Shown here: in pieces, positions 4,475-60,790 of the stretch
How positions within the stretch are numbered: position 1 is the stretch's first letter
Layout of the letters: each line of letters begins with the position of its first letter
Virus record (IMG/VR): IMGVR_UViG_3300005253_000580
Location: 1 to 60,790 of that record
Strand: one strand, 5' to 3'
Source of the DNA: a virus
Length of the DNA stretch: 60,790 nucleotides
Program-made: the position numbers and the translations under genes
The notes under the pieces: model-generated
The model's input: the letters and a program-made list of their open reading frames with translations, nothing else
Told to the model about the DNA's origin: nothing
Databases searched by the model: none

Positions 4475-4649
4475 GACTCACCACCCCTTTGCCCTTGCAC
4501 ATTGGGCAGCGCTCCTCGCCCGGGTCTTGGTCTTCCAGCGCATCGAATAGCTGAGTGATCGGGTCCACCAGCTTGGCCCAGATGTTCGTCTTTGGCTTTC
4601 GTCGCACACCGACTCCATGACAGACCGGACAGCGTCTAGTCATTCTCAA
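4467..4649 (-). CDS. Small zinc-finger protein with two DnaJ-type CxxCxGxG motifs
   Basis: CPVCHGVG and CPMCKGKG in 60 aa. Overlaps both neighbours (8 and 14 nt). Confidence 0.5.
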   Translation of the reverse strand: MRMTRRCPVCHGVGVRRKPKTNIWAKLVDPITQLFDALEDQDPGEERCPMCKGKGVVSRD

Positions 4650-5499
4650 AGATCCATAGCCTGGTCTGACCTAAGTCAGGGTAGTGAATCTCACTAGGGA
4701 TGGTGAATGCAAGGTGATTGACTGGTGCTTCGTAGTCCGGCTCCCGCCCCTCCTGCTGAGCAAGAAGAGCATTCACAACACGGGAGAGAAAGTAATATGT
4801 CCCCGTAAACCCGACTGTCACGTAATTGGGCAGTTTCTCCTCCAGCACGGCCGTGCATAGTTCTTCTGCTCGTAGGTACCGGGTATGGCTTGGCGGTACA
4901 ATCTCTGGTAGACCCACCCACTTCCGCATCCGGTTCAATCCATTGAGTCCGTCCTGCGACGACTCCACCATCACGTACTTCTTGCCCAGGGAGATGAGGT
5001 GCTGGATGGCCCGAAGCTGCGTCGGCCAGTCTGGCAGGTTGATGATGCAGCGCTCGGTGTAGACGGCATCGTACTCCGCACCCTTCCAGTCAAAGAGATC
5101 AGAGCAACCATATCGAACCGAACCGAGCGCACTAGACGAAAGCCGCTGGAGGTTACTCAGCATATCGGTGGAAAAGTCCACGGCGTCTATCACCATAGAG
5201 TACCGCTCAGCCAGATACCGCGCCGTCTCGCCATCACCGCAACCCATGTCCAGTACCCGCTTGGCACCCTGTAGCCTTCTGGCGATCTCACGCATCTCCA
5301 GTTCCTTCAGCACGCGATCCCGCGTCCCCGCATACTCGCCGAGGGAGGCGCGGTCATCCCAGAAGGCTTGCATATCTACAGCCATGTCAAGATTACCCAG
5401 AAGAACAATAATGCGCACACGACAGCTTCCCACGCTACAAAGACGCGCAGCCAATGCTCCCAGCCCAGATGGCCTCCTTGGCTTTGCCAGCTTGTCCAT
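4636..5499 (-). CDS. Class I SAM-dependent methyltransferase. Start uncertain: alternative ATGs at 5385 and 5373.
   Basis: VLDMGCGDGETARYLAE matches SAM-binding motif I. Confidence 0.7.
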   Translation of the reverse strand: MDKLAKPRRPSGLGALAARLCSVGSCRVRIIVLLGNLDMAVDMQAFWDDRASLGEYAGTRDRVLKELEMREIARRLQGAKRVLDMGCGDGETARYLAERYSMVIDAVDFSTDMLSNLQRLSSSALGSVRYGCSDLFDWKGAEYDAVYTERCIINLPDWPTQLRAIQHLISLGKKYVMVESSQDGLNGLNRMRKWVGLPEIVPPSHTRYLRAEELCTAVLEEKLPNYVTVGFTGTYYFLSRVVNALLAQQEGREPDYEAPVNHLAFTIPSEIHYPDLGQTRLWIFEND

Positions 5500-5569: not shown

Positions 5570-5941
5570 TCATGCTAGCCCCTCCAAGCTCAAGGCATCG
5601 AATGCTGCGTTGACCTCCTGCATCTTCTTCTCAGTGCCCCCTAGGTCAGGATGGTGACGCCGAGCAGCCTCACGATAGGCCGTGCGAATTTCAGTTGGTG
5701 AAGCCGTAGCGGTTGTGATGCCAAGCACTTTGAATGCCCGTTGTGCACGATGGCTAAGATGCAGCACCGTTGGTGCTGGGCGGCTAGCAGGTCGCTCACC
5801 GTACCAACCCCACTCCACTCGTAAGCGCCGAATCATCTCAGCAGTAAGTATGGGATCAACCCGCCACGCATTTGGATCCAGAACGTCACCCTCAAACTCA
5901 AACTCCCACTCTATCCGTATCTTGGGGCCATCGGGATTCAT
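5570..5941 (-). CDS. J-domain (DnaJ-like co-chaperone) protein
   Basis: C-terminal TEIRTAYREAARRHHPDLGG...MQEVNAAFDAL with the HPD tripeptide. Confidence 0.75.
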   Translation of the reverse strand: MNPDGPKIRIEWEFEFEGDVLDPNAWRVDPILTAEMIRRLRVEWGWYGERPASRPAPTVLHLSHRAQRAFKVLGITTATASPTEIRTAYREAARRHHPDLGGTEKKMQEVNAAFDALSLEGLA

Positions 5942-6570
5942 TCTATCATCCTCACAACCTCGAACGCCTCAGCGTACTCCACCCCCACCACGGCACCCCA
6001 GTATTGCGCTCGTGCTTCCAAGGCTCGGAAGGACCGGGGATGGGGAAAGGGGCGCATCTCGCTCTCATAGCACCGTAAGCCAGCTACCTTCTCTTGCCAA
6101 TACTGTGACACGTCCACGAACCGAGCGGGCCGGAACGAGTAGTCAAAGGCCCACTCGGTAGAAGATAGCACCTCAAAACTGTAGAGCGCTTGGAGAGGGT
6201 CCGCATAGCCAGGTCGCGTAGCTGTGAGTACCGCCTCGAACACTGCGCGGTGGTCTACATTCAGGTCGCTTCGGTGGTGGGTGTAGACGATGTGCGGCTC
6301 ATGAGCTTTTATCCATGCCTCGACTGCATGGATAATCCGTATCAACGGCACTGTATCCATCTGGTTATCAGGAAAGAGGTCGCCAACAAAGACAGGACTG
6401 AAGCCAAGCGCCCCTGCCGCTCTTACTGCACCCTCCACCTGCTGCCCGCCCTCTCGCCCTCTACCCAGGTATAGCACACTCACGCTCTCCCCCTCGGCGA
6501 TGTGCCGAGCGATGGTGCCACCCATGCCGAGAATCTCGTCGTCAGGATGAGCGCAGACCACACCGATCAT
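5938..6570 (-). CDS. PIG-L / LmbE-family N-acetyl-sugar deacetylase
   Basis: N-terminal VVCAHPDDEILGMGG matches the AHPDD(E) PIG-L signature. Confidence 0.8.
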   Translation of the reverse strand: MIGVVCAHPDDEILGMGGTIARHIAEGESVSVLYLGRGREGGQQVEGAVRAAGALGFSPVFVGDLFPDNQMDTVPLIRIIHAVEAWIKAHEPHIVYTHHRSDLNVDHRAVFEAVLTATRPGYADPLQALYSFEVLSSTEWAFDYSFRPARFVDVSQYWQEKVAGLRCYESEMRPFPHPRSFRALEARAQYWGAVVGVEYAEAFEVVRMIE

Positions 6571-6693: not shown

Positions 6694-6921
6694 TTACGTT
6701 GATCTATTGACATTTTTCACCTCCCACCCCTTCACCCTGAAAGCTCGCGCTATGTCGAAGTGCAACTCCACCTCCCCCTCAACCTCCGGCATCTCGGCCA
6801 TGACACGGAACTGATTAGGAACAGAGCCGCGCTGGACATCGAGAATCCGGCTCCCCTCTGGCGCGTTGAGAAGGCCAAGGAGGAAATTATACGAGACCTG
6901 GAAATTTATACGGCCCATCAC
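6694..6921 (-). CDS. Hypothetical protein
   Basis: 75-aa ORF with a 4-nt overlap to the upstream gene, in-operon. Confidence 0.5.
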   Translation of the reverse strand: MMGRINFQVSYNFLLGLLNAPEGSRILDVQRGSVPNQFRVMAEMPEVEGEVELHFDIARAFRVKGWEVKNVNRST

Positions 6922-7586
6922 CTCACCTCCGTTATCGTCACGTCCGCCTCGATCCTCCCCGTCTTCAGCGAGGCACGCGAGAACTCCAAACGGTAGCCAT
7001 TGACCTCTATGAACGCTTTGGGGTAGCCCTCCGCGTCCAGCATACGGATGAAGTCATGGAGTCCTTCCATGTCCAACTCTATGGGCAGCCAGCTCTGATC
7101 AGGTGTACGACGCTTGAACGTCACTACCTCGCCCACCTGCGATACCGACTCAGGCTCCGTAGCCGCTATCTCCTGGGCCATGTCGATGCACAGGTGTGCG
7201 GCGCGCAGATAGACCTCCTCAGCCGTGCCGTACAGGGCCAGGGGACGCTCCATGTAGATGGGCCCGGCATCCACCACCTGGGTCATCCGGTGCGCGGTAA
7301 TGACCGTCTCCGTCGCGCCTAGCATGATGAGGTTCTGCAGGGGAGAACCGCCGCGACCATAGGGCAAATCAGTTAGATGAAAGTTCACGGCCTCGTACCG
7401 CTCCGTAATCTCGGCGGAAACCCATTTTGAATAATGAATAAAGAATATGTAGCGCGGCACCATTAGCGGTAGCCAGTCCTTTGCCAACTCACCCGAATGG
7501 AAGTGCCAGTTGCTTGGGAGGTGTGCACGCTCAAAAGCATACTGTCCCCAGGGACGGTCACTGACGACGAGGTAATTGCTTCGCAC
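6918..7586 (-). CDS. Formyltransferase-like protein (Fmt N-terminal domain family)
   Basis: NFHLTDLPYGRGGSPLQN matches the H-x-(S/T)-x-LP-x-x-RG formyltransferase motif. The ORF is open to 7631, but a GTG at 7586 sits in a TAGTG overlap with the upstream small ORF. That start gives an N-terminus (VRSNYLVVSDRPWG) collinear with the duplicated fragment MKHYAVVSDRPWG. Confidence 0.7.
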   Translation of the reverse strand: MRSNYLVVSDRPWGQYAFERAHLPSNWHFHSGELAKDWLPLMVPRYIFFIHYSKWVSAEITERYEAVNFHLTDLPYGRGGSPLQNLIMLGATETVITAHRMTQVVDAGPIYMERPLALYGTAEEVYLRAAHLCIDMAQEIAATEPESVSQVGEVVTFKRRTPDQSWLPIELDMEGLHDFIRMLDAEGYPKAFIEVNGYRLEFSRASLKTGRIEADVTITEVR

Positions 7587-7753
7587 TATGTAAGCATCAG
7601 GGCATAGGCATAGACGAGGAGAGCGATCCAAAGACCCATAACGACCCCCGCCAATGCACCGTCCAGGTAGGCTTTATGCTCCCGCTCGGTCTCATATCCC
7701 CCTTCAACCCAGGCGGGTACCATTCTTTCGCCCTGTGTATCTAGTCTACTCAT
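7586..7753 (-). CDS. Hypothetical 55-aa protein with C-terminal TM helix
   Basis: Hand translation gives MSRLDTQGERMVPAWVEGGYETEREHKAYLDGALAGVVMGLWIALLVYAYALMLT. 1-nt overlaps at both ends. Confidence 0.4.
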   Translation of the reverse strand: MSRLDTQGERMVPAWVEGGYETEREHKAYLDGALAGVVMGLWIALLVYAYALMLT

Positions 7754-8872: not shown

Positions 8873-10096
8873 TCATCTCTCCTCGAACAGCACTCGCGGT
8901 AGCCGCTCCCGCATCACTTCCTTGACGTCAATCTTCTGCATCTCAGTCCACACCTCGCCAGCAGCTTCGGTAGTCAGCCTCACATCCTCGGCCATGTGTG
9001 CCAGATTAGGAAGAATGGGGCGGTTCATGAGGATGCCCCGGTCACGCATGCCCACGATAAAATAGGCCCGCTCCTCTGGGCTGTCGAACTGGATGAGTGA
9101 GCGTGGACCATGACCAATAACTCGATAACCATGAATCTGACATAGGCGTAGACCTTCCATGAGATCATTCCCCATCTCCCAAAGATGCCACACTCCCCAC
9201 TGATCCCAGATGTCCAGCACAGCGTCCGCTGCCGCCAGGGATAGGGCGTTGCCGAAGTGGGTGGAGGAGACGAACACCGGATCGTTGCGCTCGAACCACT
9301 CGAAGTATGCCCTGTGTCCCACGATGGCCGAGATAGGCACACCGTTGCCCAGTGCCTTGCCATAGCACACGATGTCGGGCTTGATGCCGTAGACCTCAGA
9401 GGCACCGCCCAGCGCCCAGCGAAAACCGGTCACCACCTCGTCCATGATCAGGAGAGCGCCCGTCTTGTCACAGATGTGGCGCACGTACTCGTAGTAGTTG
9501 GGCTCAGGGTCAACCATCGGGTGCTCCAAGATGATGGCAGCCGGGGCATCATCTGGCTTCACAACCACGGCCAACTCCACGAGCTGCTGCTTGTCATTGA
9601 ACGGAAGGTCCACGACATTCTGCGGGGCTACCCCCCACGCTGGCGGGGTCTTGCCGATGGACCAGTCTGCCCAGCCCGAGTAGCCCGACGAGAGGACACG
9701 CTGTCGCCCCGTTACCGCCCGCGCCAAGCGCACAGCCATGGTGGTAGCGTCCGTGCCGCTGAGCCCGAAGCGTACACCAAGGGTGTCCGGTGACCAACCC
9801 GGAACATGGGTACCAAGGAGGTTGGCCAGCTTCTCGGCGACCCGTGCTTCTAGGACATGAGGGAGGGAGAAGCCAATGCCCTCGAATGCTTGATCGGCGA
9901 GGCGGCAGCAGAAATCTACATTAGCGTAACCAAGCAGGTTCGCACCCAGTCCCGATACCCAGTCCAGGTACCTGTTGCCAGCACGGTCATAAACGTGCGC
10001 TCCCACACCCCACGCCAGTTCCTTGGGCTCAAAGTCCACGCCCCAGAAGACGGGCGATTTCGAGAAGGTGGCGGCGATGGGGAGAGGCTTAGGCAT
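8873..10096 (-). CDS. Class-III (HemL/GSA-aminomutase-like) PLP-dependent aminotransferase
   Basis: GLSGTDATTMAVRLAR, LIMDEVVTGFR, and the PLP-lysine context CYGKALGNG. The ATG at 10096 is preceded by GGAGGA. The ORF is open to 10180. Confidence 0.8.
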   Translation of the reverse strand: MPKPLPIAATFSKSPVFWGVDFEPKELAWGVGAHVYDRAGNRYLDWVSGLGANLLGYANVDFCCRLADQAFEGIGFSLPHVLEARVAEKLANLLGTHVPGWSPDTLGVRFGLSGTDATTMAVRLARAVTGRQRVLSSGYSGWADWSIGKTPPAWGVAPQNVVDLPFNDKQQLVELAVVVKPDDAPAAIILEHPMVDPEPNYYEYVRHICDKTGALLIMDEVVTGFRWALGGASEVYGIKPDIVCYGKALGNGVPISAIVGHRAYFEWFERNDPVFVSSTHFGNALSLAAADAVLDIWDQWGVWHLWEMGNDLMEGLRLCQIHGYRVIGHGPRSLIQFDSPEERAYFIVGMRDRGILMNRPILPNLAHMAEDVRLTTEAAGEVWTEMQKIDVKEVMRERLPRVLFEER

Positions 10097-10233
10097 TAGG
10101 TTCCTCCACCATCTATAACCCAGCCGATCAAGAGCAAAACTAAGCCACATGCAGCCGAACCTATCAACACCACCCACCATATAAGCGAAAGTATAGTGAG
10201 AACGTTGAGGAGAGATTCGAGTAGCACTTCCAT
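10096..10233 (-). CDS. Hypothetical 45-aa hydrophobic (TM) micro-protein
   Basis: Hand translation gives MEVLLESLLNVLTILSLIWWVVLIGSAACGLVLLLIGWVIDGGGT. 1-nt overlaps with both flanking sugar genes. Confidence 0.4.
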   Translation of the reverse strand: MEVLLESLLNVLTILSLIWWVVLIGSAACGLVLLLIGWVIDGGGT

Positions 10234-10895
10234 CACGCCCTCACCACTCCCAGCACACTGAGCCACCCGAAGTCCTCACCCAGCGCTGCATAGACGCCAC
10301 GCACATACTCCATATCCTCCTCAGTATCCACTGACCACTTCAGCGCCGAGAGGTCATCGGCGTGCTGAAGGTGCCCGCTCTTGTAGGTCTTGCGTAGCCA
10401 CGTCGTGACGTGCTCCCGGTCCTTCTGCGCCGTCTTACGGTCTGCTTGGCGTAGTGCCTCGATGGTGAAGGCCTCCACATCGAGGCCATCAGGGTAAGTG
10501 CGGGGGTCCACGTTGTTGAGGTAGGGCGCGTTGAGCGCCGCATGAGCCGCCACTACTTCGTCAATCAATCCTGGGTCAATCAGGGGGCAGTCAGCCGTGA
10601 TCCGCACGATGACGGTAGCTCCCGTTATCGTCGCCACGTCCGCGTAGCGCCCCAGCACATCCCCCTCAAAGTGACCACCGCGTAGAACGCTGATATCATT
10701 GGCTTGGCAGAAGCGCACGATCTGCTGGTCGGCCCCTGAGAACGAGGTGGCCACCACCACTGAACCAACTAACTCCGCCCGCTTCACCCGCTCGTAGACA
10801 CGCTGAAGCATGGGCTTGCCGCAGACATCCTGGAGCACTTTGCCGGGTAGGCGGGACGATCCCATACGGGCTTGGATGATGGCGACTGTGTTCAC
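10233..10895 (-). CDS. Cytidylyltransferase, SpsF/PseF-like (CMP-nonulosonate synthetase family). GTG start.
   Basis: IIQARMGSSRLPGKVL is the N-terminal signature of this family. Confidence 0.8.
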   Translation of the reverse strand: MNTVAIIQARMGSSRLPGKVLQDVCGKPMLQRVYERVKRAELVGSVVVATSFSGADQQIVRFCQANDISVLRGGHFEGDVLGRYADVATITGATVIVRITADCPLIDPGLIDEVVAAHAALNAPYLNNVDPRTYPDGLDVEAFTIEALRQADRKTAQKDREHVTTWLRKTYKSGHLQHADDLSALKWSVDTEEDMEYVRGVYAALGEDFGWLSVLGVVRA

Positions 10896-12349: not shown

Positions 12350-12562
12350 TCACCATGCCTGCTGGCCCTCCGCGGACGTTACTGAAGCATTACCCTCAGT
12401 GACTGCTACCCTCCACCCCTCTTCTTCGTCCTTAACAACCACCCAGCGCCAGCCCAACCCTGCGCTCGTGAGTGCATCTGCCACATCCCCGGCACAGAAG
12501 GAGCAGCGCCCGTCCACTACCGCTATAGCCGTTGCCACAGCCTCTGCTTCCCAATTCGTCAT
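12350..12562 (-). CDS. Hypothetical protein
   Basis: 70-aa ORF whose ATG is in an ATGA overlap with the TerL stop. Confidence 0.45.
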   Translation of the reverse strand: MTNWEAEAVATAIAVVDGRCSFCAGDVADALTSAGLGWRWVVVKDEEEGWRVAVTEGNASVTSAEGQQAW

Positions 12563-14067
12563 GGTGCCATTCTCTCCATCAACTCTATCTCGCTCCGTTC
12601 ACGCCGTCCCGTTGGCTCCAGCCACCAGTCGGGAATAGCCGAGCCCTGGAGTAGCAGGAGTGCCATAGTGGTGGTGTCCACCCAGTCGTCGTGGTCTGCG
12701 CTGGGGAACTCCAGGTGCTCAGCCTTCCACTCCTGAAGCCACGGGGCCTCCGGCGGGAGCCACACACGCATCGAGGCGAATATGTCCGTCACGGCATGGG
12801 CACGGGCCAGCTTGCCTCGCTCCTCTTTCCACCCTTGCACCTGGAGACCCTGGCTCTGCATCTGCTGCACCAGGCTGATCCCGCTAGCCTTATACTCCAC
12901 CCAGGTCCTATTGGGTTTGATTCGCTCTATGTGCCGTTCTACGAGATGCTTCAGATCGGGGAAGCCTACCTTCCAGCGCCCAGCGTCCAGCAGGTAGAGG
13001 TTGATTCCGCGACGCCCCCACGTGGCGGTAGCGGACCAATCGGCCTCCTGCCCCTCCTCGAAGGCTGTGTCCCAGACGGTGATGATGTCCTCCAGTATCT
13101 CCCGCGAGAATACCTCTGGAGGTAGAGGCACCATCTCCTCTGCCAGCGCTCGCCGCTCCTCCTCAGTGGGCACCCGCCAGGACTGCCACCACTCACCCCT
13201 GAATACATTACCCTCTTCCTCTCCAATATCACCCTGATAGACGCGGCGGAAGGTAAGGGGTGCCAGTGTCTGCTCACGCTGGAGGCGCTCAATAGACCAT
13301 CGCTCAGGCCATAGGGCAGTGCCGTCGTCCTGGATCGCCTTCTGGTGGATGAGAGTCCATTCCCTCTGGAGAAGATGGGCGGCGAGGTCACCGGAGTGCC
13401 AGCGCGTCATGATACAGACGGCTACGCCCTTGTCTGTGAGTCGGGTCAGCGCCACACGGTCCACCTTCTCTATGATCTTCTCGCGCTGATACCGAGTAGC
13501 CGTGTTCTCCAGGTCGTTCACGTCGTCGAGGATAAGCACATCAGCGCGGGGACCAGCAGGAAGCTCGGCGATTCCATAGGCTGAGAAGCTGGGGTGGGGG
13601 TCGGCTATATTGGGCCTCTTGAGATACCAAGCATGACCCGCCGTGCCACGACGGTCATCCAGCTCAACACCGGGAAAGGCATCGTGGAATTCAGCGCTAT
13701 CCCTGATAGTGTCCCTAACCGCCAGGCTCTTGGCAACCGCTAGGCCAGCAGCGCTGGACAGGTAGATAATATGAAGGCTAGGGTCTTGCCCCAGTAGCCA
13801 CGCAGGCCAGTGAACGCCAACCCACTGCGTCTTCGCGTAGCCAGGAGGGGCAATGATCAGCAATGGGTTATCAGGACTCACCTCAGCAAGCGCCTCTAGC
13901 CACACCTTATGGTGTATGGCGGGCGGGAGACCGTGAACAATGCGACCATAGTCGCCAAGGGTGGGCGGGGGAGGCGGCACTACGGTAGCCTTTGCCTCCT
14001 GAATACGCCGTACTACTTCAGTCAGTGCTGGGGTAAAATCCGCAGGACCATGAAGGAGCTGGTTCAC
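12559..14067 (-). CDS. terL: Terminase large subunit
   Basis: Walker-A-like IIAPPGYAKT, Walker-B-like VLILDDVND, and a C-terminal nuclease-like region. 4-nt overlap with TerS. Confidence 0.85.
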   Translation of the reverse strand: MNQLLHGPADFTPALTEVVRRIQEAKATVVPPPPPTLGDYGRIVHGLPPAIHHKVWLEALAEVSPDNPLLIIAPPGYAKTQWVGVHWPAWLLGQDPSLHIIYLSSAAGLAVAKSLAVRDTIRDSAEFHDAFPGVELDDRRGTAGHAWYLKRPNIADPHPSFSAYGIAELPAGPRADVLILDDVNDLENTATRYQREKIIEKVDRVALTRLTDKGVAVCIMTRWHSGDLAAHLLQREWTLIHQKAIQDDGTALWPERWSIERLQREQTLAPLTFRRVYQGDIGEEEGNVFRGEWWQSWRVPTEEERRALAEEMVPLPPEVFSREILEDIITVWDTAFEEGQEADWSATATWGRRGINLYLLDAGRWKVGFPDLKHLVERHIERIKPNRTWVEYKASGISLVQQMQSQGLQVQGWKEERGKLARAHAVTDIFASMRVWLPPEAPWLQEWKAEHLEFPSADHDDWVDTTTMALLLLQGSAIPDWWLEPTGRRERSEIELMERMAP

Positions 14068-14576
14068 GGTGCTGGTAGTTCCTTTTGCTCAATACCTAAG
14101 CTAAGCACTCCCGTTAGAAGTTCCTCCTCGGATATACCACTTTCCTCAGCGAAAAGCTTGAGCCGCTCCGTCAGGATATCCCAGCGATCACGACGACCGA
14201 AGAATGCTGGGAACCGCCTTTCGAGTAGCCATGCGTCAGCCGCCCACTCCCCTTTGCTATAGGTCTCATGGACAGTAGTTACACCTGTCCTCTCGTTGGT
14301 AGTAGTGGTCCGAGATAACACCTGTCCACCCTCAGCAGCTCGGCTAATACGGGCAACCCGTGTAAGAATAGCATCCGCCTCTGCCCTCGCGATATCTAGG
14401 ACGAAAGTGACAAAGCGTCCACTAGTTTGCTCTTTCCCCTGAAGCATCCAACGGTCCAATGTGCGGTAGCTGATACCCCCATGAACAGCAGCGACCACTA
14501 AGGGGTTGCCATCGCGCACAGCCTGCACGATATGCGCCGCAGCGGCTGGGGTGAACTTGCTGGGCCGACCTGCCAT
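14064..14576 (-). CDS. terS: Terminase small subunit (HTH DNA-binding)
   Basis: MAGRPSKFTP...GISYRTLDRWM is an N-terminal HTH typical of TerS. Lies directly upstream of TerL. Confidence 0.65.
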   Translation of the reverse strand: MAGRPSKFTPAAAAHIVQAVRDGNPLVVAAVHGGISYRTLDRWMLQGKEQTSGRFVTFVLDIARAEADAILTRVARISRAAEGGQVLSRTTTTNERTGVTTVHETYSKGEWAADAWLLERRFPAFFGRRDRWDILTERLKLFAEESGISEEELLTGVLSLGIEQKELPAP

Positions 14577-51672: not shown

Positions 51673-52056
51673 TCATTCGACAAAGAGCCTCAACGTCCCG
51701 GAAGTTGTGCCCGAGGTTGAACCACACGTCATTGTCACGGTAACCTTCTCGTTGAACAGGGGGAGCCTATCAGCCACAGCTCCTGTCGTAGCCGTATCCG
51801 AGGCAGTGCTTAGCACACCTACTGTTCGGGGGAACCACTGGCCATCAGCGCTGATATCAGCCTTCGAGAATAGTAGCAGCCCCGTGCGGTCGCCTGTGAT
51901 CTGGAGAAGCCCCTGGGTGCTCAGTGGCGTGCTAGTGGAAACCTCAAGTTGTACAGCATGGAGATAGCCATTGTAGGTCTTAGAAGACGATGCCGTGGCC
52001 GGCGAGGTGCTGGTCGTCGCCGTGAGCGTGATATCTTCGGATGTGATGTAGGCCAT
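51673..52056 (-). CDS. Hypothetical Ser/Thr-rich head-module protein
   Basis: 127-aa ORF. Confidence 0.5.
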   Translation of the reverse strand: MAYITSEDITLTATTSTSPATASSSKTYNGYLHAVQLEVSTSTPLSTQGLLQITGDRTGLLLFSKADISADGQWFPRTVGVLSTASDTATTGAVADRLPLFNEKVTVTMTCGSTSGTTSGTLRLFVE

Positions 52057-52064
52057 GCTTTACC

Positions 52065-53036
52065 TCACTGCGGCTTCGGCCCGTTCCCAACAATGATGTC
52101 TTGAGGCGGCACCCATATCTTCTTGATGTGCTGCGTATCCTGAATAGCCCCTCGGTACTGGTCTCGCGCCCCCGTCAGATTGGCAATCTGCTGATCAAGC
52201 TCATTGAGTTTCTGTTGAAGTTCGGTCTCACGAGCCTGGAGCTTCTGCTGGAATGCTGATTGCGCGATGCTCTGGTAGCCGTACAAGAACGCTGCCTTGA
52301 GGAGATCCGACTGTGCTGGGATGGTGACTTTGATACCCATGCCCCTTGCATAGCCGATGTAGTATTCGCAGCTAGGGCGCTGGCTTTGATATTCTGTATC
52401 ATGGGCCATATCCACTCCGAACACCCCGATCTCCTCAAACCCTTCCATCATCGCCAGAGCGATCATGTACGAGATGCTGTTCGTGAGGTATGGCTGCTCA
52501 GGATCGCCATAGCGGTGGATGATCTCGGTCAGTGGGTAGACCACCGATTGCGGGATATCCTCCCAGTGCTGCTGCATGTACACTGGCACGGTCATGGCCT
52601 GGAGCTTCTGAATGTGTTCGTGGGTACGGCCTTTGTCCGCCTCATAGATTTCTCTTCGGTGTAACTCGAACCAGCGAGTCCAGCGCGGGATGAGCATGTA
52701 GAGCTCATTGAGCCCCCATATCTCCCACTCAGGATCATCGAAGGGTGCGAGTTTCCACGACTCCGTAAAGCCCAGGACGGCCACCTTCGTGAGCTTCTTG
52801 GGTTCCGCGATAGGCGGCGGCTCCGTTCCCAGGAGCAACGCCTGGGACATCCCCGTTCGCGCTGGCTCAATTCCCACCCCTGCATCAATCGTGATCATGC
52901 CCTCTGACGCGCTCACTGTTACGTCTGTGCCTGTCGGCATCTCGCCTACCATTCTAATTTCCTCCTGCGCCTCTAGGGCGTCTTGAAACTCACCTAGATG
53001 ACGTTCGTACCCGTCGATTGAGCAAGAACAGTCCAT
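52065..53036 (-). CDS. Rossmann-type transferase-like protein, paralog B of 3806..4474, with a C-terminal coiled coil. Start may be the ATG at 52952.
   Basis: KVAVLGFT...EIWGLNE...RWFELH...NSISYMIALAMMEGFEEIGVFGVDMA...YARGMGIKV aligns with paralog A. Confidence 0.45.
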   Translation of the reverse strand: MDCSCSIDGYERHLGEFQDALEAQEEIRMVGEMPTGTDVTVSASEGMITIDAGVGIEPARTGMSQALLLGTEPPPIAEPKKLTKVAVLGFTESWKLAPFDDPEWEIWGLNELYMLIPRWTRWFELHRREIYEADKGRTHEHIQKLQAMTVPVYMQQHWEDIPQSVVYPLTEIIHRYGDPEQPYLTNSISYMIALAMMEGFEEIGVFGVDMAHDTEYQSQRPSCEYYIGYARGMGIKVTIPAQSDLLKAAFLYGYQSIAQSAFQQKLQARETELQQKLNELDQQIANLTGARDQYRGAIQDTQHIKKIWVPPQDIIVGNGPKPQ

Positions 53037-53821
53037 CTGGTGCTATTCAGCCCAATCAAATGAATCCATCCCGGTGCAGCGGCTAGACCAGTCGTGAAGG
53101 CGATGTGCGTGCTGCCAGCCGTAGTGAAGTCAGCCCCCGCCGAGCTTGAGGTGATCGTCACCGTCGCGGCAGTCGAGACAACAGATATCCACTTCACCAC
53201 ACCAGCAACCGGGGCATTAAGATCCACCGTCAGCGCAGTGGCTGCATAGATGGTGCTAATGCCATAGGCCGTCATTTCCGTCGTGCCGCCGCTCGTTATT
53301 GCCTCGACATACTGCTGATAGCCAGTGTTAGCAAGGATGCGTTGGCCTGAGATGGCACCACCAGCACCACCAGTGGTAGTGACGCTATCAAAGGTTCCTG
53401 CACCCGTGGAGGTCACCGCCGCGCCAGTGATAGTGCCCGTGGAGGTGACGGCATTGAATGTGCCGAGCCCCGTGGAAGTCACCGCGTTGAACGTGCCCGT
53501 TCCGGTGCTGGTGACGGCATCGAATTTAGCCGCGACCCCCGACCCTGTGGATGTGTAGCTGGCGCCAGTGCTTACGAAGCCGCCAACAGCATCAACTTCG
53601 CCCGTGGTGTTGATGTCTCCACCAATAAACCCACCTGCCGTACTGAGGTCGATAGTACCGCCGGTGGTAATGAGTTCTGAACCACCTACCTTGAGTACAC
53701 CACCCGACTCGATGTCGATCTCTCCGCCCGATTCAACGTCAGCAGAACCAGAGGAGGCGATGACGAAGCGGTCGCCACCTCTCTCCCGATAGGTACCCGG
53801 CTGGTACGTATTGTCTGCCAT
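52994..53821 (-). CDS. Gly/Ser/Thr-rich repeat protein in the head module (decoration/fibre candidate)
   Basis: Five 11-aa repeats: FDAVTSTGTGT, FNAVTSTGLGT, FNAVTSTGTIT, GAAVTSTGAGT, FDSVTTTGGAG (about 53365-53530). Lies two genes downstream of the MCP. Confidence 0.6.
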   Translation of the reverse strand: MADNTYQPGTYRERGGDRFVIASSGSADVESGGEIDIESGGVLKVGGSELITTGGTIDLSTAGGFIGGDINTTGEVDAVGGFVSTGASYTSTGSGVAAKFDAVTSTGTGTFNAVTSTGLGTFNAVTSTGTITGAAVTSTGAGTFDSVTTTGGAGGAISGQRILANTGYQQYVEAITSGGTTEMTAYGISTIYAATALTVDLNAPVAGVVKWISVVSTAATVTITSSSAGADFTTAGSTHIAFTTGLAAAPGWIHLIGLNSTRWTVLAQSTGTNVI

Positions 53822-53905: not shown

Positions 53906-54358
53906 TTATGCGGTCCCCGTGCTGGGGCGGCTGTGGTACTCAGCACCGATCAGATCGGCGGTGCTGTGCGTGACCGGTGCCTCCTTCGGCAGGTAGCCGA
54001 GGGCGATGATGGAGTCAAAGACATCACTCGTGTTTACCGACACATAGACGAGACGCACCCACTGCTTCCCTGGCTTATACAGATCCAGGATCGCCACGCC
54101 ATCTTCAATGGTGGTGGTCATCGAGATTGAGGTTCCAGTGAGATCGGAGACCGCACTGGTACTGAAGCCAGAAGAGGCTGACTCCTGCAGCTTGATGCTC
54201 GCGCCGGTGGTTTGCAGGGTGCTCAGCGACACTAGCCAAGCGACCCCCGTATAGGGCGTGGTGTCGATGCCAGCGTCGTTTTTGTCGGCGGTGGTGCCCG
54301 TGACCTGGCTTGTGCGGTGAATGATAGCCACATTGCGCATCAGATTGTGCATTGCCAT
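53906..54358 (-). CDS. Hypothetical head-module protein immediately after the MCP
   Basis: 150 aa, Thr/Ser-rich. Confidence 0.5.
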   Translation of the reverse strand: MAMHNLMRNVAIIHRTSQVTGTTADKNDAGIDTTPYTGVAWLVSLSTLQTTGASIKLQESASSGFSTSAVSDLTGTSISMTTTIEDGVAILDLYKPGKQWVRLVYVSVNTSDVFDSIIALGYLPKEAPVTHSTADLIGAEYHSRPSTGTA

Positions 54359-54385: not shown

Positions 54386-55735
54386 TTAGGTGCTGATGTT
54401 CTGGAGACGGAGCCGCCAGTCCTCGACCAGCGCGCCACCGAACCGGATGCGGCCCAGCATGATAATCTGGTTCGTCTGGGCCAATAGCTCCTTGAGTATC
54501 TGGATCGTGAAGCCTACCCGCTGCACCAGGAAGTATCCGCTGAGGTCGCCGTAGATGATGGGCTTGTTGGAAGCGGTCGTGGCGTTCGGCATGAATTCCG
54601 AATAGAGGATCGGGATGCCCAGAAGATCGCCCCTCACCTTTGGCACTGACAAGCCGCCGGCCTCATCATTGTTTGACCAGAGATATCTACCATCACCATC
54701 CTTGAGTTTGAAGATCGTGCGACCAGTATTCAGCTTGTTCATGACAAAGACAGAGTTCTGGTCGTACTGGGGCGGTAGGTTGAAGGCCAGGTCCACAATG
54801 CCATCGCCCGTGAGCGTGGCGGTGGCACCAGAGTTGACGGCATTGGTGATGGCGTTGGCATTGACGAGGATGCCTTCGGGACGACTGGTCCCCGATCCCT
54901 GGATGATCATATCCTCAAAGAGGAGCTCAATCGTCTCGCTGAACTTCGCGGAGATGTATCCCATGATGTCGAACCCAGAGTCCTCAACCATGTCATTGGT
55001 GAGGACCAGTGACATCATTGCTGTCCAGATTGGGATACGCACCTGACCGAATACCGGCTCCGTGACTCGGTGAACCGTGGATGACGCAGGAATCTCACCA
55101 CTCCAGGTTATCCGCATACCAGTGGTGTACAGATCATCATCAGTCCAGGTGACTTTCGGGAAAGCCATTGAATCTCTACCCGTAGTCAGCCGCGTTACCC
55201 GACCAGCCATGACGGTTGGGGTCGGCTCCTTCTGGAGGACACGGTTCTGAATGTCTTCGGGCACAAGGTATCCACCAGACACATCAAGCCCCTCCTGCAG
55301 AACCTTGATGGCTTCGGGAGTCTGATTGCCCATCCAGCCCTTGGTGCGAACATATGCGCGTATAGCCGCCCCGTAATCTGGATGGCGGATCGCGGCCATC
55401 TCCTTGTCAGTCATCAGGGCAATGCCATCGGAACTAACCAGAACAGACTCTGGGTTATTCTCGACGAGCACACTACCATGTGGGCTGAATCCAACAACGG
55501 CAGCACTGCCCTTATTCGGGTCCGCAAGACTGATCCCACCACTGGACTGACGGGCGTAAGCCGAAAGGTCACCCGCTTTCCGCTGGGCCTCAATCTCTGC
55601 CTTGATGGGCTCAACCTCAACATGGATAGCCTCGATGCGCTCAGCATCCGCTACCCCAAAGTCCTCCTTGGCTGCGATAGCCTCGACCTCTGTCACGAGA
55701 GCGGCTAGCTTTTCCTGTGCGTCTTTTAGAGCCAT
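54386..55735 (-). CDS. Major capsid protein (HK97-type)
   Basis: Coiled-coil N-terminal delta-like region, then GGYLVPEDIQ and a long capsid core. Follows the prohead protease. Confidence 0.85.
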   Translation of the reverse strand: MALKDAQEKLAALVTEVEAIAAKEDFGVADAERIEAIHVEVEPIKAEIEAQRKAGDLSAYARQSSGGISLADPNKGSAAVVGFSPHGSVLVENNPESVLVSSDGIALMTDKEMAAIRHPDYGAAIRAYVRTKGWMGNQTPEAIKVLQEGLDVSGGYLVPEDIQNRVLQKEPTPTVMAGRVTRLTTGRDSMAFPKVTWTDDDLYTTGMRITWSGEIPASSTVHRVTEPVFGQVRIPIWTAMMSLVLTNDMVEDSGFDIMGYISAKFSETIELLFEDMIIQGSGTSRPEGILVNANAITNAVNSGATATLTGDGIVDLAFNLPPQYDQNSVFVMNKLNTGRTIFKLKDGDGRYLWSNNDEAGGLSVPKVRGDLLGIPILYSEFMPNATTASNKPIIYGDLSGYFLVQRVGFTIQILKELLAQTNQIIMLGRIRFGGALVEDWRLRLQNIST

Positions 55736-55747
55736 GAGTTTCCCCCC

Positions 55748-56995
55748 TTAGCTCAGATACTGTATGGCTGCCAACTTCAATTTCAATACCTGGACTCGCC
55801 TCAGCGCCATCTCGGCTTTCGCCGGGTCACTGTCGCGCAGGAGACCCTTGATAGTCTCGGTAGCGTTTGCCATATCTCCCAGGTACTCCTGGAGTGCATG
55901 ACGGTTGTCATCCGAGATAACCCGACCCTCTTTTGCGCGTCGCTCATGGAGGTCTTGCGTGCGCTCCACGAGTTCGGCGATGTATGTCTTTGTCGTGTCT
56001 ATCATCATGCCCATCGACATTGCCGCTGGTGTGGGCACGAAGACCGCTTCTACCTCTACGGGATCGCCAATACTGGTGACGTTGTTGTCTTCATCAAGGG
56101 TGAAGGGCACGCTGAAATGACGTTCGGCACCCTGATGTTCCAGGGCAACGATGGCGTGATCGCTGAACGTCGCCTCGACGTAGCAATAACCCTGGGGTTC
56201 AAAGGGGGACGCCCAAGCCATATGGGTATGGCATAGAGCCTGAATCTGTGAGCGCACATCTTCCCAAGAAGTCGGTGAATGAGCTGCCTTGGTAACGGAT
56301 TCCTCCTCGGTGATATCAACCCCCAACACGGCGCCAAGCGCCTCCTCAGTCTCAGGAAGCTCGACCCCTATCGCCTTGTAATGGCCCTTCACCTCTGCAA
56401 AGGCCACATCAGCCAGGGGGTTCGCAGGCGTCGGCGTCAAAGAACCCTCAACAATGGGCCAGCGCAGAATCTCGCCAGTCTTCGTATTGGCCTGCACTAG
56501 ATGCCGCATGGAGCCAGACGATAGGCCCAGCTTGCCCTGTTTGATAAGTTCCTTGATCGCCTCGTAATACTCGTTGGCGGCATCTAGCTGGGCCTTCATC
56601 CATTGCCCCAAGTCTGTCGGCGAAATAGCCTTGATGCGCCCAACGACAGTTATGCCCGTTCCATCGTCCAGGCCGTGCTGGTAGAGCAATGGACGCTCAG
56701 TGAACCAATCAAGGGCGAAGTCTGTCTTGGCAGAGAAGAACTCACCCATGAGATCCCTGCCATTGAAGGGACCACCATAGGGCGCTAGAAGCCCCTCGAT
56801 CTCAGTCTCACTGTTATCCAGGAACTTGACCGCCATCTTCGACTCCTGGGCGTTGAGCGCGGCTAGTTGCTGCTGCGCCTCCTGCTGGGTCGCATGGCAC
56901 CCCAACGACTCGCCCGCAGCGTCTCCATCAGCGCCCTGCCTGAAGACACACCACTCATCTTCTCTTTTCTCAATAGTCCAGGGCATGTTCACCAC
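55748..56995 (-). CDS. Prohead serine protease (S78-like) with a C-terminal scaffold-like extension
   Basis: PLLYQHGLDDGTGITVVGRI ... LIKQGKLGLSSGS fits the His...Ser arrangement of HK97-type proteases. Confidence 0.7.
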   Translation of the reverse strand: MVNMPWTIEKREDEWCVFRQGADGDAAGESLGCHATQQEAQQQLAALNAQESKMAVKFLDNSETEIEGLLAPYGGPFNGRDLMGEFFSAKTDFALDWFTERPLLYQHGLDDGTGITVVGRIKAISPTDLGQWMKAQLDAANEYYEAIKELIKQGKLGLSSGSMRHLVQANTKTGEILRWPIVEGSLTPTPANPLADVAFAEVKGHYKAIGVELPETEEALGAVLGVDITEEESVTKAAHSPTSWEDVRSQIQALCHTHMAWASPFEPQGYCYVEATFSDHAIVALEHQGAERHFSVPFTLDEDNNVTSIGDPVEVEAVFVPTPAAMSMGMMIDTTKTYIAELVERTQDLHERRAKEGRVISDDNRHALQEYLGDMANATETIKGLLRDSDPAKAEMALRRVQVLKLKLAAIQYLS

Positions 56996-57727: not shown

Positions 57728-58399
57728 TCACGTCTCCCACTGGTAGACCTTTTGCAACAGCGTGCAGTGCGCCCGTTGGTGGTCGGGGATCTCGGCTAGA
57801 TCGCCCACCTCATTGGTGTCGTGGTTGAAGATGATTTCCTTGCGGATACGGTAGCCCGCCGCCAGGAAGGGGGAGATGTAGTCCGCCTTGAAAGTGAACA
57901 GCCCCTCCTGGTGGTGGTAGGGCACCTCGGTCGGTATCTCAGGGAGGAAGTCGCCTATGAGGAGGAAACCCCGGTTGGGCACACAGGAGTCTATAGATTC
58001 CAAGGACGCCATCATCTCAACTCTGTCTATCCAGTGGAAGACAAAATAGACGATGGTGAGATCAATATTGTGCGGCGCAAAATGCAGAGCGTCTGAGGCG
58101 GGTGCTATGCTAAGCAATGATACTGGCCACTGATAGCCATCTTGAATGGCGGCCTTTGACACATCAATACCGTAACCGTGACAGCCGTAACGTTGATAGA
58201 GTTTCCGCAAGCGCCAGCCATTCGCGCACCCAATCTCAAAGACAGTCGATCTGTGGTCGAGCGGCGGGATACCCTCGGCCAACAAGCGGAGCGGCATATC
58301 GTCTGCTTCTGCCCTGTCCAACGCTGCCTTGTTGCGGTGGAACCAAGCGTCCCCCTCACCGTTGCGGAATGCGTCACCTTGGTTCATGCCTGCACCCAC
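57728..58399 (-). CDS. Class I SAM-dependent methyltransferase (resembles pseudaminic-acid-biosynthesis-associated methylases; tentative)
   Basis: VFEIGCANGWRLRKL matches motif I. The N-terminal GDAWFHRNK-type segment resembles that family. Confidence 0.65.
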   Translation of the reverse strand: MGAGMNQGDAFRNGEGDAWFHRNKAALDRAEADDMPLRLLAEGIPPLDHRSTVFEIGCANGWRLRKLYQRYGCHGYGIDVSKAAIQDGYQWPVSLLSIAPASDALHFAPHNIDLTIVYFVFHWIDRVEMMASLESIDSCVPNRGFLLIGDFLPEIPTEVPYHHQEGLFTFKADYISPFLAAGYRIRKEIIFNHDTNEVGDLAEIPDHQRAHCTLLQKVYQWET

Positions 58400-58465: not shown

Positions 58466-59455
58466 TCAGTCTTGGTTATGGGATGTGCTTTCGGCTTCTG
58501 TTTTTTGGGCATCTTGCACCTCTAGGCTCTTAGGCCACCATCGGAACCCGAAACCTTGATATGGCAGCAATGTTCCCCGCAACCGATACCTATGCGGGCT
58601 AAGTTGCTCACGCCTTTCCCGATGTTGCATGCCGACTTCATAGGAGAAATTGTCTGGTATTTGCACTTCGACTTCAGGCTTTTCGGTTGCATGGATGATA
58701 ATGGTCACTTCTTGATCACTTGGCCGTCGCACTTGGATGGTCTCAGACCACACGGAAATTATCTCTTTAGGTGCGAAGTCTTTTATTTCATGTTCGAATT
58801 CTAATGACCAAACTGTTCTCGTTACGGGTAATTCAGAACCAGAAAATTCACACCGATTACCAGCACGCAGGTAGCCAACACGGATTATCTCTGACTGTCT
58901 AATGCCGTAATGGTACTCATCAATACTTCGTCGTATTTTCAGAGTTTGAGTATGAGAGGAAATATTCTGGATATCGTAAGAGGAATATTCCCTCAATAGC
59001 ACTGACGCTCCATCTAATATTTCTATCGTAAAACGATGATAATAGTTCCTTCGCACCATAGTTATGTTTGTTAACCAGGTCATTTCCCCGCGTATTGATG
59101 GGGGCAACAAGTAACCTAGAACTGCTCTTACTATATCATCCAATGCCTTCTGTCGTAGATATGATTCAAAGACAAGGCCAAGAACACAAGCTATGAGGAT
59201 CGCTATGCCAGTCTCTGCTAAGAGAAAGGCGAACCAAGCACCCTTATGTTCCCCCGTGATTAGGAGTGCTGCTAAGATCAGGACTAAACCTATGACCAGA
59301 GGGATCGCGAACCACTTCGACGCTTCCCTAAAGCTCATACTCCTGTATCCTTGTTGGCGTAGTAGGTTCCGCTGCTGAATGATATCATCCAACTCAGCAA
59401 TAGAGCCATGTTTGAATTCAGGCGGCCATGCGTCGAGCCAAGTATTATGCCGCAT
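58466..59455 (-). CDS. Low-GC membrane protein (two adjacent TM helices plus a roughly 220-aa C-terminal domain), function unknown
   Basis: WFAIPLVIGLVLILAALLITG and AWFAFLLAETGIAILIACVLGLVF. Hand counts of 60-nt lines give about 37-48% GC against roughly 60-70% in sampled flanking genes. Confidence 0.6.
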   Translation of the reverse strand: MRHNTWLDAWPPEFKHGSIAELDDIIQQRNLLRQQGYRSMSFREASKWFAIPLVIGLVLILAALLITGEHKGAWFAFLLAETGIAILIACVLGLVFESYLRQKALDDIVRAVLGYLLPPSIRGEMTWLTNITMVRRNYYHRFTIEILDGASVLLREYSSYDIQNISSHTQTLKIRRSIDEYHYGIRQSEIIRVGYLRAGNRCEFSGSELPVTRTVWSLEFEHEIKDFAPKEIISVWSETIQVRRPSDQEVTIIIHATEKPEVEVQIPDNFSYEVGMQHRERREQLSPHRYRLRGTLLPYQGFGFRWWPKSLEVQDAQKTEAESTSHNQD

Positions 59456-59512: not shown

Positions 59513-60472
59513 TCATGCTCCCTCCAACAGAGTTTTGAAAGCCTCGTTCGTCAACCACTGCTTATTGGTGTCCGAAGTGTAACTCCACATAGGCGGCATC
59601 ATTATCCCCTTGCCTTCCCATCCCGTCACATGAGATGGCAGAATAACGTAGCAAGAGCCAATGTCCAGGGCTTGTTCACCAGGCGCTACCATCGCCTCGT
59701 GTAATTTCTCACCCGGTCGAATGCCTATGATCTCTACCTCGGCATCCGGCGCGAGAGCCCACGCCACGTCCACCACACGCATGGATGGTACCTTCGGCAC
59801 AAAGACCTCGCCACCCTTCATGCGCTCCAGGCAGGCCAGAACGAACTCAACGCCCTGCTCCAGGGTGAGCCAGAACCGCGTCATGTCCTTGTGCGTGACC
59901 GTTACCCGCCCCGTCCTGGCCTGCTCCTGGAACAGAGGCGCAACGCTTCCACGGCTACCGATGACGTTTCCGTATCGGGTACAGGCGAATGCTGTCAGAC
60001 GGTTCGGGCCACGGTAGGAGTTGGCCTGAATCAGCAGCTTCTCCATGACCAGCTTCGTTGCACCATAGAGGTTGAGTGGTGCAACGGCTTTATCCGATGA
60101 CAGCCCTAGTACCTTCCCTACACCGCAATCCAGGGCTGCCTCTACAAGGTTCAGAGTGCCGATGATGTTCGTCTTGACTGCCTCTGCCGGGTTGTACTCA
60201 GCCGCAGGCACCTGCTTCAGCGCAGCGGCGTGGACTACTATATCCACACCCTCCAGAGCTCGTCGTAGCCGAGCCTCATCCCGCACATCACCGATGAAAT
60301 AACGCAGCGGATCAGCATCACCAAACCGACGCCTCATCTCCTCTTGTTTCAACTCGTCTCGTGAGTAGATAATGAGGCGTCGGGGGCCTAGCGGCAGTGC
60401 CATCTCAGTGAACTTCTGTCCGAAGCTCCCTGAGCCGCCAGTGACCAGGACACTCAACCCCTCCAGGTTCAT
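59513..60472 (-). CDS. pseB: UDP-GlcNAc 4,6-dehydratase (inverting), PseB/FlaA1/CapD-like
   Basis: VLVTGGSGSFGQKF, IIYSRDELKQ, FIGDVRD, VVHAAALKQVPAAEYNPAEAVKTNIIGTLN. Confidence 0.85.
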   Translation of the reverse strand: MNLEGLSVLVTGGSGSFGQKFTEMALPLGPRRLIIYSRDELKQEEMRRRFGDADPLRYFIGDVRDEARLRRALEGVDIVVHAAALKQVPAAEYNPAEAVKTNIIGTLNLVEAALDCGVGKVLGLSSDKAVAPLNLYGATKLVMEKLLIQANSYRGPNRLTAFACTRYGNVIGSRGSVAPLFQEQARTGRVTVTHKDMTRFWLTLEQGVEFVLACLERMKGGEVFVPKVPSMRVVDVAWALAPDAEVEIIGIRPGEKLHEAMVAPGEQALDIGSCYVILPSHVTGWEGKGIMMPPMWSYTSDTNKQWLTNEAFKTLLEGA

Positions 60473-60693
60473 GCGCTAAACCGAATGCCAAGGGATGTCG
60501 TTGACGGGAAGTCTGCTTTGACTGAGAGCACCAGAGCGCCAGTATCGCTAACATCCATATGATTTATCGTGTTGCAATCATCACACTTGGTCTCAATGAC
60601 GGTACCCGGACCAAGGCTGTAAATATGATTGAACTTGTTGCCGCAATTGAAACAGCGATACTCCCAATACCCCGTTGAGTTCTCAACCATCAT
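60469..60693 (-). CDS. Small zinc-ribbon protein spanning into the terminal repeat
   Basis: CFNCG...CDDCN. 4-nt overlap with the pseB start. Confidence 0.5.
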   Translation of the reverse strand: MMVENSTGYWEYRCFNCGNKFNHIYSLGPGTVIETKCDDCNTINHMDVSDTGALVLSVKADFPSTTSLGIRFSA

Positions 60694-60790
60694 CGCCCCC
60701 TCTTGAATGCGCCTACCACTGACTGACGTACAAGCCGTTGCACGGCACCAGAGCGTACAACTTTGTCAATCGCGGTTTGGTCAGTCACCC
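60670..60790. repeat. Terminal direct repeat, copy 2 (identical to 1..121)
   Basis: Exact 121-nt match to the window start. Confidence 0.95.

Follow-up and report, generated by a model that had tools for sequence, protein, structure and literature searches.

Does a phage that carries genes for a nonulosonate sugar also encode the enzyme that attaches this sugar to its own particle? This question is raised by the IMG/VR virus record IMGVR_UViG_3300005253_000580, whose 60,790 nucleotides, referred to here as the window, contain two paralogous genes, copy A and copy B. Copy A lies within a block of sugar-biosynthesis genes, and copy B lies among the head genes, directly downstream of a gene for a Ser/Thr-rich protein, designated X. 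In this study, the enzyme family of copies A and B was found to have the fold and core motifs of the sialyltransferase CstII and of DUF115 proteins, yet it stands outside both GT42 (the family of CstII) and DUF115 by their hidden Markov models (HMMs). We regard it as an evenly balanced proposition that the phage makes a CMP-nonulosonate with which copy B would O-glycosylate X, and perhaps its neighbours p150 and p127, X being displayed on the capsid as a coat.

Paralogy and fold of the enzyme family

A first-pass annotation of the window had described the two open reading frames (ORFs) as paralogues, and BLASTP bore this out, since the product of copy A aligned with that of the longest copy B frame (52065..53036) with 27% identity over 223 aa (E=8e-19). 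The sequence blocks that had been noticed in both proteins correspond to conserved columns of an alignment of 55 sequences of the family (A1). Twelve of its columns are invariant (G61, E77, W79, N82, H98, P140, Y155, G179, E187, E196, G200 and Y224, in the numbering of the 295-aa form of copy B), and all twelve are kept in copy A. The same annotation had reported a 43-nt overlap of copy B with the gene of X. This overlap is an artefact that arose because the longest ORF had been used. An AGGAGG ribosome-binding site stands 8 nt ahead of the ATG at 52952, which is the likely true start by its sequence context. The protein read from this ATG is the 295-aa NCBI protein LCGC14_0313430 from a marine sediment metagenome, and its start sits 41 nt past the stop codon of X. 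An overlap as a sign of translational coupling was thereby ruled out.

Single-sequence searches of the PDB with the two paralogues were empty. The AlphaFold2 model of copy B built on A1 (mean pLDDT 85.2, pTM 0.74) showed an alternating beta/alpha core at residues 56-210 and a long C-terminal helix at residues 225-280. The fold search that had been proposed for the predicted structure was run on this model with Foldseek, and the top 12 PDB matches were all CstII or Cst-I of Campylobacter jejuni (E 2e-6 to 6e-5, probability 1.0, target TM-score 0.37-0.46). They were followed by the MptE-like HPPK of M. jannaschii (8sd5; E 5.7e-3, probability 0.99), by SteA and by human ST6GALNAC2; the matches to MptE-like HPPK and SteA, at E 6e-3 to 6e-2, were weaker than those to CstII. 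In the BFVD database, viral DUF115/MptE-like proteins were among the named matches (E 1.5e-3 to 3.6e-2), again weaker than CstII.

The profile comparisons pointed in the same direction. When the A1 HMM was run against PDB sequences, GT42 sialyltransferases took the first 8 ranks, although with non-significant E-values of 0.14-0.85. In hhalign, A1 was compared with a GT42 alignment of 39 sequences (A4), in which the CstII sequence was checked to be identical to 1RO7_A. The result was a local alignment of 31 columns with a probability of 80% and E=1.3e-5, which paired TNSISYMIALAxxEGFxEIxVYGVDM with ITSGVYMCAVAIALGYKEIYLSGIDF (in a shorter rendering, TNSISYMIALA..GVDM with ITSGVYMCAVA..GIDF). 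The global hhalign comparison gave no usable alignment, and only the local one is meaningful. Within the central GT42 motif R-I-T-S-G-x-Y-M...G-Y-x-x-I-Y-L-x-G-I-D, the family retains Y-M, G-(F/Y), G-x-D and the equivalent of Ser132, in registers that differ between HMMER and hhalign; the retention of Arg129 is not clear, as the two registers disagree. Moreover, a greedy local alignment with CstII was collinear across the catalytic domain, where G61 aligned with G8, E77-I-W-G-L-N82 with D26-V-F-R-C-N31 and Y188 with Tyr162.

An insert of ~270 aa follows the motif GVDMxHD in several homologues of ~500-550 aa (P0004, P0008, P0034, P0040 and P0063). It starts with Cys and ends with SHN before (S/T)EY, one insert has a weak LAGLIDADG_3 match, and ~13 of the 150 best representatives are split at one profile position (171-175). 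The window has no counterpart of the insert, and the insertion point corresponds to window position ~52398, past GVDMAHD of copy B. By sequence, these segments look like recurrently inserted inteins. Inteins prefer conserved functional sites, and their insertion at GVDMxHD therefore argues that this motif is functionally important, which is counted in favour of the proposed enzymatic role.

The family occurs almost only in phages, and chiefly in uncultured ones. A search of a 90%-identity database yielded 820 matches, none with a Pfam domain, and at 50% identity 5,483 representatives were obtained (E<=1e-3). The family is present on 452 IMG/VR viral contigs. In cellular genomes, 14 loci were found among 185,579 species, mostly on phage-like contigs of metagenome-assembled genomes, and only 1 of 50,697 records of cultured or deposited phages carried a member. 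This is Microcystis phage Mvi-Yong1342-1 (PP496355.1, locus L087, 19908-20711), in which the gene stands directly ahead of TerS. Its label, 'type 11 methyltransferase', gives no functional clue and is probably a misannotation.

The partner protein X and the head genes

X, the product of the second gene after the major capsid protein (MCP) gene, was confirmed to be the 275-aa Gly/Ser/Thr-rich protein with five repeats that the first-pass annotation had described. Its Ser+Thr (S+T) fraction is 0.28 and its Gly fraction 0.17. V[TS][ST]TG occurs at residues 103, 114, 125, 136 and 147, with a spacing of exactly 11; none of 20,000 shuffled sequences reached five matches (maximum 2), the program TRF detected a 33-nt period in the gene, and the MCP was identified with Pfam. 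Scans of X against Pfam, PHROG and NCBIfam gave nothing significant. The AlphaFold2 model of X is of moderate quality (pLDDT 71.6), with a confident beta C-terminal domain and with repeats that are unstructured in the monomer. In the PDB it matched a capsid spike best, that of Pseudomonas phage Pa223 (E=1.9e-3), and next the N-terminal domains of tailspikes; these matches are weak.

The C-terminal domain of X (X-C) links the protein to the enzyme. With residues 165-275 of X as the seed, jackhmmer recovered 41 genes at 41 loci, and 38 of the 41 lie immediately upstream of a gene of the enzyme family. Within these neighbourhoods, the genes for X-C and for the enzyme make up a conserved module of two genes, which demonstrates functional coupling rather than glycosylation. 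The earlier claim that X is the acceptor is partly supported by this pairing.

A second part of that claim, that the VTSTG repeats are the target, did not hold well. In close homologues of X (alignment A2), conservation is seen in the first ~55 residues and in the C-terminal domain, and the repeat ranges from 0 to about 10 copies, and the proteins that carry the X-C domain are mostly of 150-160 aa, with Ser/Thr-rich C-terminal tails and no repeats. Because the conserved element of the partner is the C-terminal domain, glycosylation of the VTSTG repeats is possible but not favoured. As a conserved recognition element the repeats were rejected, since they are missing from most partners.

The composition of the surrounding genes was also examined. 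When 40 ORFs of the window were ranked by Ser/Thr content, the top three were the genes that flank copy B, namely p127 (0.32), X (0.28) and p150 (0.26). Across family loci, which are not phylogenetically independent, the gene directly upstream of the enzyme had a median S+T of 0.24 versus 0.14 for the other ORFs of the same loci (Mann-Whitney p=2e-17), and 78% of these upstream neighbours versus 24% of background ORFs reached S+T >=0.20. The upstream neighbours form at least 20 BLASTP clusters. Furthermore, the order MCP, unannotated protein, enzyme was found in phages with three types of MCP (HK97 Phage_capsid, a protease-MCP fusion, and Mu gpT/Phage_capsid_4). At one Mu-gpT-type locus (L042, 9110-10009), the gene upstream of the enzyme encodes a 299-aa protein with S+T of 0.16 that appears, by eye, right-handed beta-helix-like, as in tailspikes.

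Bases 1-121 of the window are repeated directly at its end (the first 100 bases match exactly at 60670), which indicates that the phage genome is complete, being either circular or terminally redundant, with a length of about 60,669 bp; on the circular map, the two blocks of sugar genes then flank the portal and MuF genes (Table 1). On the minus strand, the order is TerL, cytidylyltransferase, class-III aminotransferase, HNH, formyltransferase-like protein, PIG-L, DnaJ-domain protein, methyltransferase, copy A and NeuB-family synthase, followed by portal, MuF, two small genes, PseB, a 329-aa ORF, a second methyltransferase and a 415-aa ORF, and then by MCP, p150, X, copy B, p127, head-tail adaptor and tail tube. 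This arrangement, in which sugar genes and head genes are mixed along a single strand, speaks for late expression of the sugar genes together with head assembly. Upstream of TerL, and of a 170-aa ORF without a Pfam match (14064..14576), lies a gene for a 677-aa N6/N4 DNA methylase (14576-16609, minus strand).

The nonulosonate genes and their linkage to the family

The nature of the sugar was considered from the biosynthetic genes. The window encodes PseB, the enzyme of the first committed step of pseudaminic acid synthesis, with a TIGR03589 score above the family cutoff. The NeuB-family synthase, which adjoins copy A just as the first-pass annotation had it, scored 324.3 bits with the PseI model TIGR03586, under its cutoff of 340.25, and 212.9 bits with NeuB_NnaB. 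From PseB over its cutoff and a PseI-like synthase, the sugar is most likely a pseudaminic-acid-type nonulosonate, as far as sequence models can tell. The cytidylyltransferase is weakly KdsB/PseF-like, scoring 32 bits with PseF against a cutoff of 205.7 and higher with KdsB models. A GSA-like aminotransferase, a formyltransferase-like protein and a PIG-L protein take the place of PseC, PseH and PseG, and the sugar may accordingly be a non-canonical one resembling pseudaminic acid, possibly N-formylated or methylated.

Several further genes were observed in this block. A homing-type endonuclease of the HNH_3 type lies inside it (7896-8381, minus strand), and an unrelated contig of podovirus-like type (L124, 9541-10014) has another HNH gene just ahead of NeuB. 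A DnaJ-domain protein (5570-5941, minus strand) and a 60-aa CxxC zinc-ribbon protein (4467-4649, minus strand) are encoded beside copy A; one possibility is that they chaperone the acceptor.

The linkage of the family to nonulosonate genes was counted at IMG/VR loci that covered 10 kb on either side of a family or NeuB gene, taken from 2.9 million viral contigs. Among the 23 family loci whose upstream flank reached 9 kb or more, nine had NeuB in the covered sequence, and a further two carried it on another part of the contig (L007/L094 and L011/L162). Conversely, a family member was found within 10 kb and on the same strand at 22 of the 80 best viral NeuB loci. Because the enzyme family and NeuB are both rare, each being present on only about 450-540 of the 2.9 million contigs (~0.02%), the two coincide far more often than expected by chance. 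In a related groundwater phage, a copy-A-like gene stands amid genes for PseB-like, methyltransferase, GFO/IDH, CTP_transf_3, aminotransferase, formyltransferase-like, PIG-L and NeuB proteins, and a copy-B-like gene comes after the MCP. In addition, the family gene adjoins a CTP_transf_3 cytidylyltransferase gene on two Acidobacteriota chromosomes. It is chiefly this co-occurrence with NeuB and CTP_transf_3, seen in many phages that are unrelated to one another and in the Acidobacteriota loci, that suggests a CMP-activated sugar as the donor.

The two Acidobacteriota loci deserve a separate description. One (L175, 8317-11665) holds a family gene with CTP_transf_3 and a PMT_2 membrane glycosyltransferase, and the other (L180, 8436-13142) holds two family copies with CTP_transf_3 and a CarboxypepD_reg repeat protein. 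These cellular-looking loci may represent a non-phage use of the family.

Table 1. Positions of the genes and sequence elements discussed, in window coordinates.
Feature	Position	Strand	Basis
Copy B, 295-aa CstII/GT42-like single-Rossmann enzyme with long C-terminal helix (225-280)	52065..52952	-	AGGAGG ribosome-binding site, AlphaFold2, Foldseek, hhalign
Copy A, 222-aa paralogue within the sugar-biosynthesis block, without the C-terminal helix	3806..4474	-	BLASTP
X, 275 aa: conserved N-terminal domain of ~55 aa, 11-aa repeats, C-terminal beta domain of ~110 aa	52994..53821	-	alignment A2, AlphaFold2
Five 11-residue repeats (A/S)VT(S/T)TGxGTF(N/D), X residues ~96-150	53372..53536	-	regular expression and shuffling, TRF, A2
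X-C, C-terminal domain of X, residues 165-275	52997..53329	-	jackhmmer, domain alignment
p150, 150-aa Ser/Thr-rich protein (S+T 0.26), phrog_5707, between MCP and X	53906..54358	-	PHROG E=3.5e-6
p127, 127-aa protein directly downstream of copy B, S+T 0.32	51673..52056	-	composition ranking
Major capsid protein, HK97-type	54386..55735	-	Pfam Phage_capsid E=4e-45
415-aa ORF, no family match, probably scaffold by position	55748..56995	-	
Second SAM (S-adenosylmethionine) methyltransferase, second sugar block	57728..58399	-	
329-aa ORF beside the second methyltransferase, no family match	58466..59455	-	
PseB, UDP-GlcNAc 4,6-dehydratase (inverting)	59513..60472	-	TIGR03589 417.6 bits, cutoff 407.75; Polysacc_synt_2 E=1e-92
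Terminal direct repeat of bases 1-121	60670..60790	.	exact match
MuF-like protein	836..1480	-	Pfam Phage_Mu_F
Portal	1464..2810	-	Pfam Phage_portal E=7e-56
NeuB-family nonulosonate synthase, nearest PseI	2803..3858	-	Pfam NeuB E=8e-66 + SAF
SAM-dependent methyltransferase, sugar block	4636..5499	-	Methyltransf_25/23/11
PIG-L/LmbE-type de-N-acetylase	5938..6570	-	PIG-L E=6e-22
Formyltransferase-like protein	6918..7631	-	Formyl_trans_C_2 E=5.5e-25
Class-III (GSA-like) aminotransferase	8873..10180	-	Aminotran_3 E=7e-34; NCBIfam
CMP-sugar-type cytidylyltransferase	10233..10895	-	CTP_transf_3 E=1.4e-26
TerL	12559..14067	-	

Proposed function, alternatives and known systems

The proposed mechanism would proceed as follows. 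The phage would synthesise its own CMP-activated nonulosonate of the pseudaminic acid type with PseB, the PseI-like synthase, the cytidylyltransferase and tailoring enzymes, the tailoring being performed by the aminotransferase, formyltransferase, deacetylase and methyltransferase gene products. Copy B would use this CMP-nonulosonate to O-glycosylate Ser/Thr residues of X in the cytoplasm during head assembly, and would possibly modify p150 and p127 as well. X would then form a spike or fibre on the capsid and so coat the virion with acidic sugar, and copy A would be a second transferase, for another acceptor or a second sugar. The wider proposal is a tentative one, that an unrecognised phage family of CstII-like enzymes O-glycosylates dedicated Ser/Thr-rich virion proteins with phage-made pseudaminic-acid-type nonulosonates; we place it somewhat short of an even chance.

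In this scheme, paralogy, fold, pathway genes, co-occurrence and the two-gene module are results of the analysis, whereas the donor, the acceptor, catalysis and a place in the virion are inferred. Several observations weigh against this reading. Neither paralogue has a Pfam match at E<=1, including PF06002 and PF01973, and the PHROG and NCBIfam scans of both were likewise without a match. The TM-scores of the copy B model to CstII are modest (0.34-0.46), and the CstII lid at ~163-188, including His188, falls into a deletion of the greedy hhalign alignment, which is of low confidence in this part. In the GT42 alignment, His188 and Tyr156/Tyr162 of the lid (~155-188) are invariant; in CstII the two tyrosines bind phosphate and His188 is the catalytic base. 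As the lid and His188 have no counterpart in the family, another catalytic base would be needed if the enzyme is a transferase. The GVDM motif reads GVTL in copy A, with the loss of Asp181. With regard to the sugar, scans of sugar-block ORFs revealed no PseC (DegT-type aminotransferase), PseH (GNAT) or PseG (UDP-sugar hydrolase), which makes the exact product uncertain. About half of the family loci have no NeuB in the sequence covered, and of 101 family genes only 37 have a gene with X-C directly upstream. A high Ser/Thr content is frequent among structural proteins of phages, as the 24% of background ORFs illustrates, and the loci compared for neighbour composition are not independent of one another in phylogeny. 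Finally, it is the gene position of X and one weak fold match that suggest a location on the head surface.

Among the alternatives, the one that survives best, although we consider it unlikely, is that copy B is a CMP-nonulosonate transferase whose acceptor is another virion protein, such as the MCP, the tail tube, p150 or p127. In that case the role of X would be that of a specificity adaptor, of a chaperone or simply of a co-regulated structural protein. The limited share of family genes preceded by X-C fits this explanation, as does the finding that the enzyme also follows many Ser/Thr-rich genes without X-C, spread over the neighbour clusters described above. The slot directly upstream of the enzyme is filled by a p150 homologue at one locus (L056) and by p127 homologues at three (L052, L055 and L057). 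However, the X-C/enzyme pair stays together in podovirus-like genomes with a T7-type portal, where it lies away from the MCP, between TerS and a 541-aa ORF that has no Pfam match and is probably TerL by its position. Since the pair persists when it is relocated, the pair itself was argued to be the functional unit.

It is improbable, in our judgement, that the paralogues instead sialylate host surface glycoconjugates (lipooligosaccharide (LOS), capsule, flagellin or S-layer), for example in superinfection exclusion. The nearest solved structures are indeed LOS sialyltransferases, no phage acceptor candidate adjoins copy A, and the Acidobacteriota loci pair the family with a PMT_2 glycosyltransferase or a CarboxypepD_reg repeat protein. 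Nevertheless, copy B and the sugar genes lie within the late head-morphogenesis module and share its strand, the tight pairing of copy B with a protein that the phage encodes recurs in different lineages, and the family is nearly absent from cellular genomes.

Little credence is likewise given to the view that the family is not a glycosyltransferase at all, its members being kinases or pyrophosphokinases of the MptE/HPPK type, or else assembly factors that bind nucleotides without catalysis and share only a Rossmann-like fold. This view is kept alive by the missing GT42 lid and His188 and by the modest TM-scores, and the presence of MptE-like HPPK and SteA in the fold search and the lack of a family-level HMM match also agree with it. 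Against it, the CstII/Cst-I matches were ~1000-fold stronger than the HPPK matches, the profiles picked GT42 specifically, and the genomic linkage to NeuB and cytidylyltransferase genes is strong; in addition, twelve invariant polar, aromatic, Gly and Pro residues and the intein insertion in the core motif argue for an active site. DNA hypermodification was set aside, as the enzyme pairs with a protein-coding partner, with base-modification genes not having been searched for.

Glycosylation of X by copy B with a phage-made nonulosonate, the preferred reading, can be compared with three known systems. CstII and Cst-I, the CMP-Neu5Ac sialyltransferases of C. jejuni (GT42, PF06002; 1RO7, 2P2V), have the same single-domain Rossmann-like fold and are the best structural match. 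They share with the family the collinear motifs beta1-Gly, (D/E)-(V/I)-(F/W)-x-x-N and YM.A.A...G(F/Y).EI...G(V/I)D, as well as the genomic tie to a CMP-nonulosonate pathway. All true GT42 proteins examined carry PF06002, and some of them also match PF01973. Unlike CstII and Cst-I, the family has no PF06002 match, shares about 13-15% identity with them, lacks the lid with His188 and has an extra long C-terminal helix. It also lies amid phage structural genes with a presumed protein acceptor, whereas the C. jejuni enzymes belong to an LOS locus and have a glycolipid acceptor. The likeness to CstII and to DUF115/Maf that the first-pass annotation had seen was thus upheld for the fold, by Foldseek, profile search and hhalign, and did not extend to the PF06002 and PF01973 models or to the lid and its histidine.

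Protein O-glycosylation with nonulosonates is known from flagellins, pilins and S-layers. Maf proteins (DUF115/PF01973) are described (PMC4065374, PMC3426422) as O-glycosyltransferases that act on flagellin with pseudaminic or legionaminic acid. The mechanism proposed for copy B resembles theirs, in that a nonulosonate activated with CMP would be O-linked, in the cytoplasm, to Ser/Thr of a structural protein before this protein is assembled into a polymer. Both also belong to one fold superfamily, with MptE-like/DUF115 proteins among the fold matches. Unlike Maf, the family has no PF01973 match, its members are of about 250-300 aa, Maf proteins being much larger, and lack the Maf flanking domains, and the acceptor would be a phage protein instead of flagellin.

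To our knowledge, glycosylation of phage virions is established only for some mycobacteriophages, with ordinary hexose transferases. In these phages, glycosyltransferases encoded next to structural genes reportedly modify virion proteins, and the systems reportedly rely on ordinary hexose-type glycosyltransferases and host nucleotide sugars. The work on them, by Freeman et al. 2023 in Cell Host Microbe, is cited in PMC12619734. The phage of the window differs from them in carrying a nonulosonate pathway, a CstII-like enzyme and a dedicated partner protein. A full-text literature search found no report of the enzyme family or of nonulosonate glycosylation of phage virions, and the author of the earlier annotation likewise knew of no nonulosonate version. 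On computational grounds, the enzymes constitute a new family inside a known fold superfamily, and would represent known chemistry in a new biological setting.

If the proposed function is true, it would bring a new chemistry to virion surfaces, in which a sialic-acid-like head coat would be found on many uncultured tailed phages of several capsid lineages. Such a coat could affect virion stability, adsorption, adherence to mucus or particles, and recognition by immune systems or grazers. It would also explain why NeuB-type 'auxiliary metabolic genes' are located among structural genes, and would provide new protein-directed CMP-sugar transferases for glyco-engineering. Moreover, it would give a function to thousands of 'hypothetical' phage proteins.

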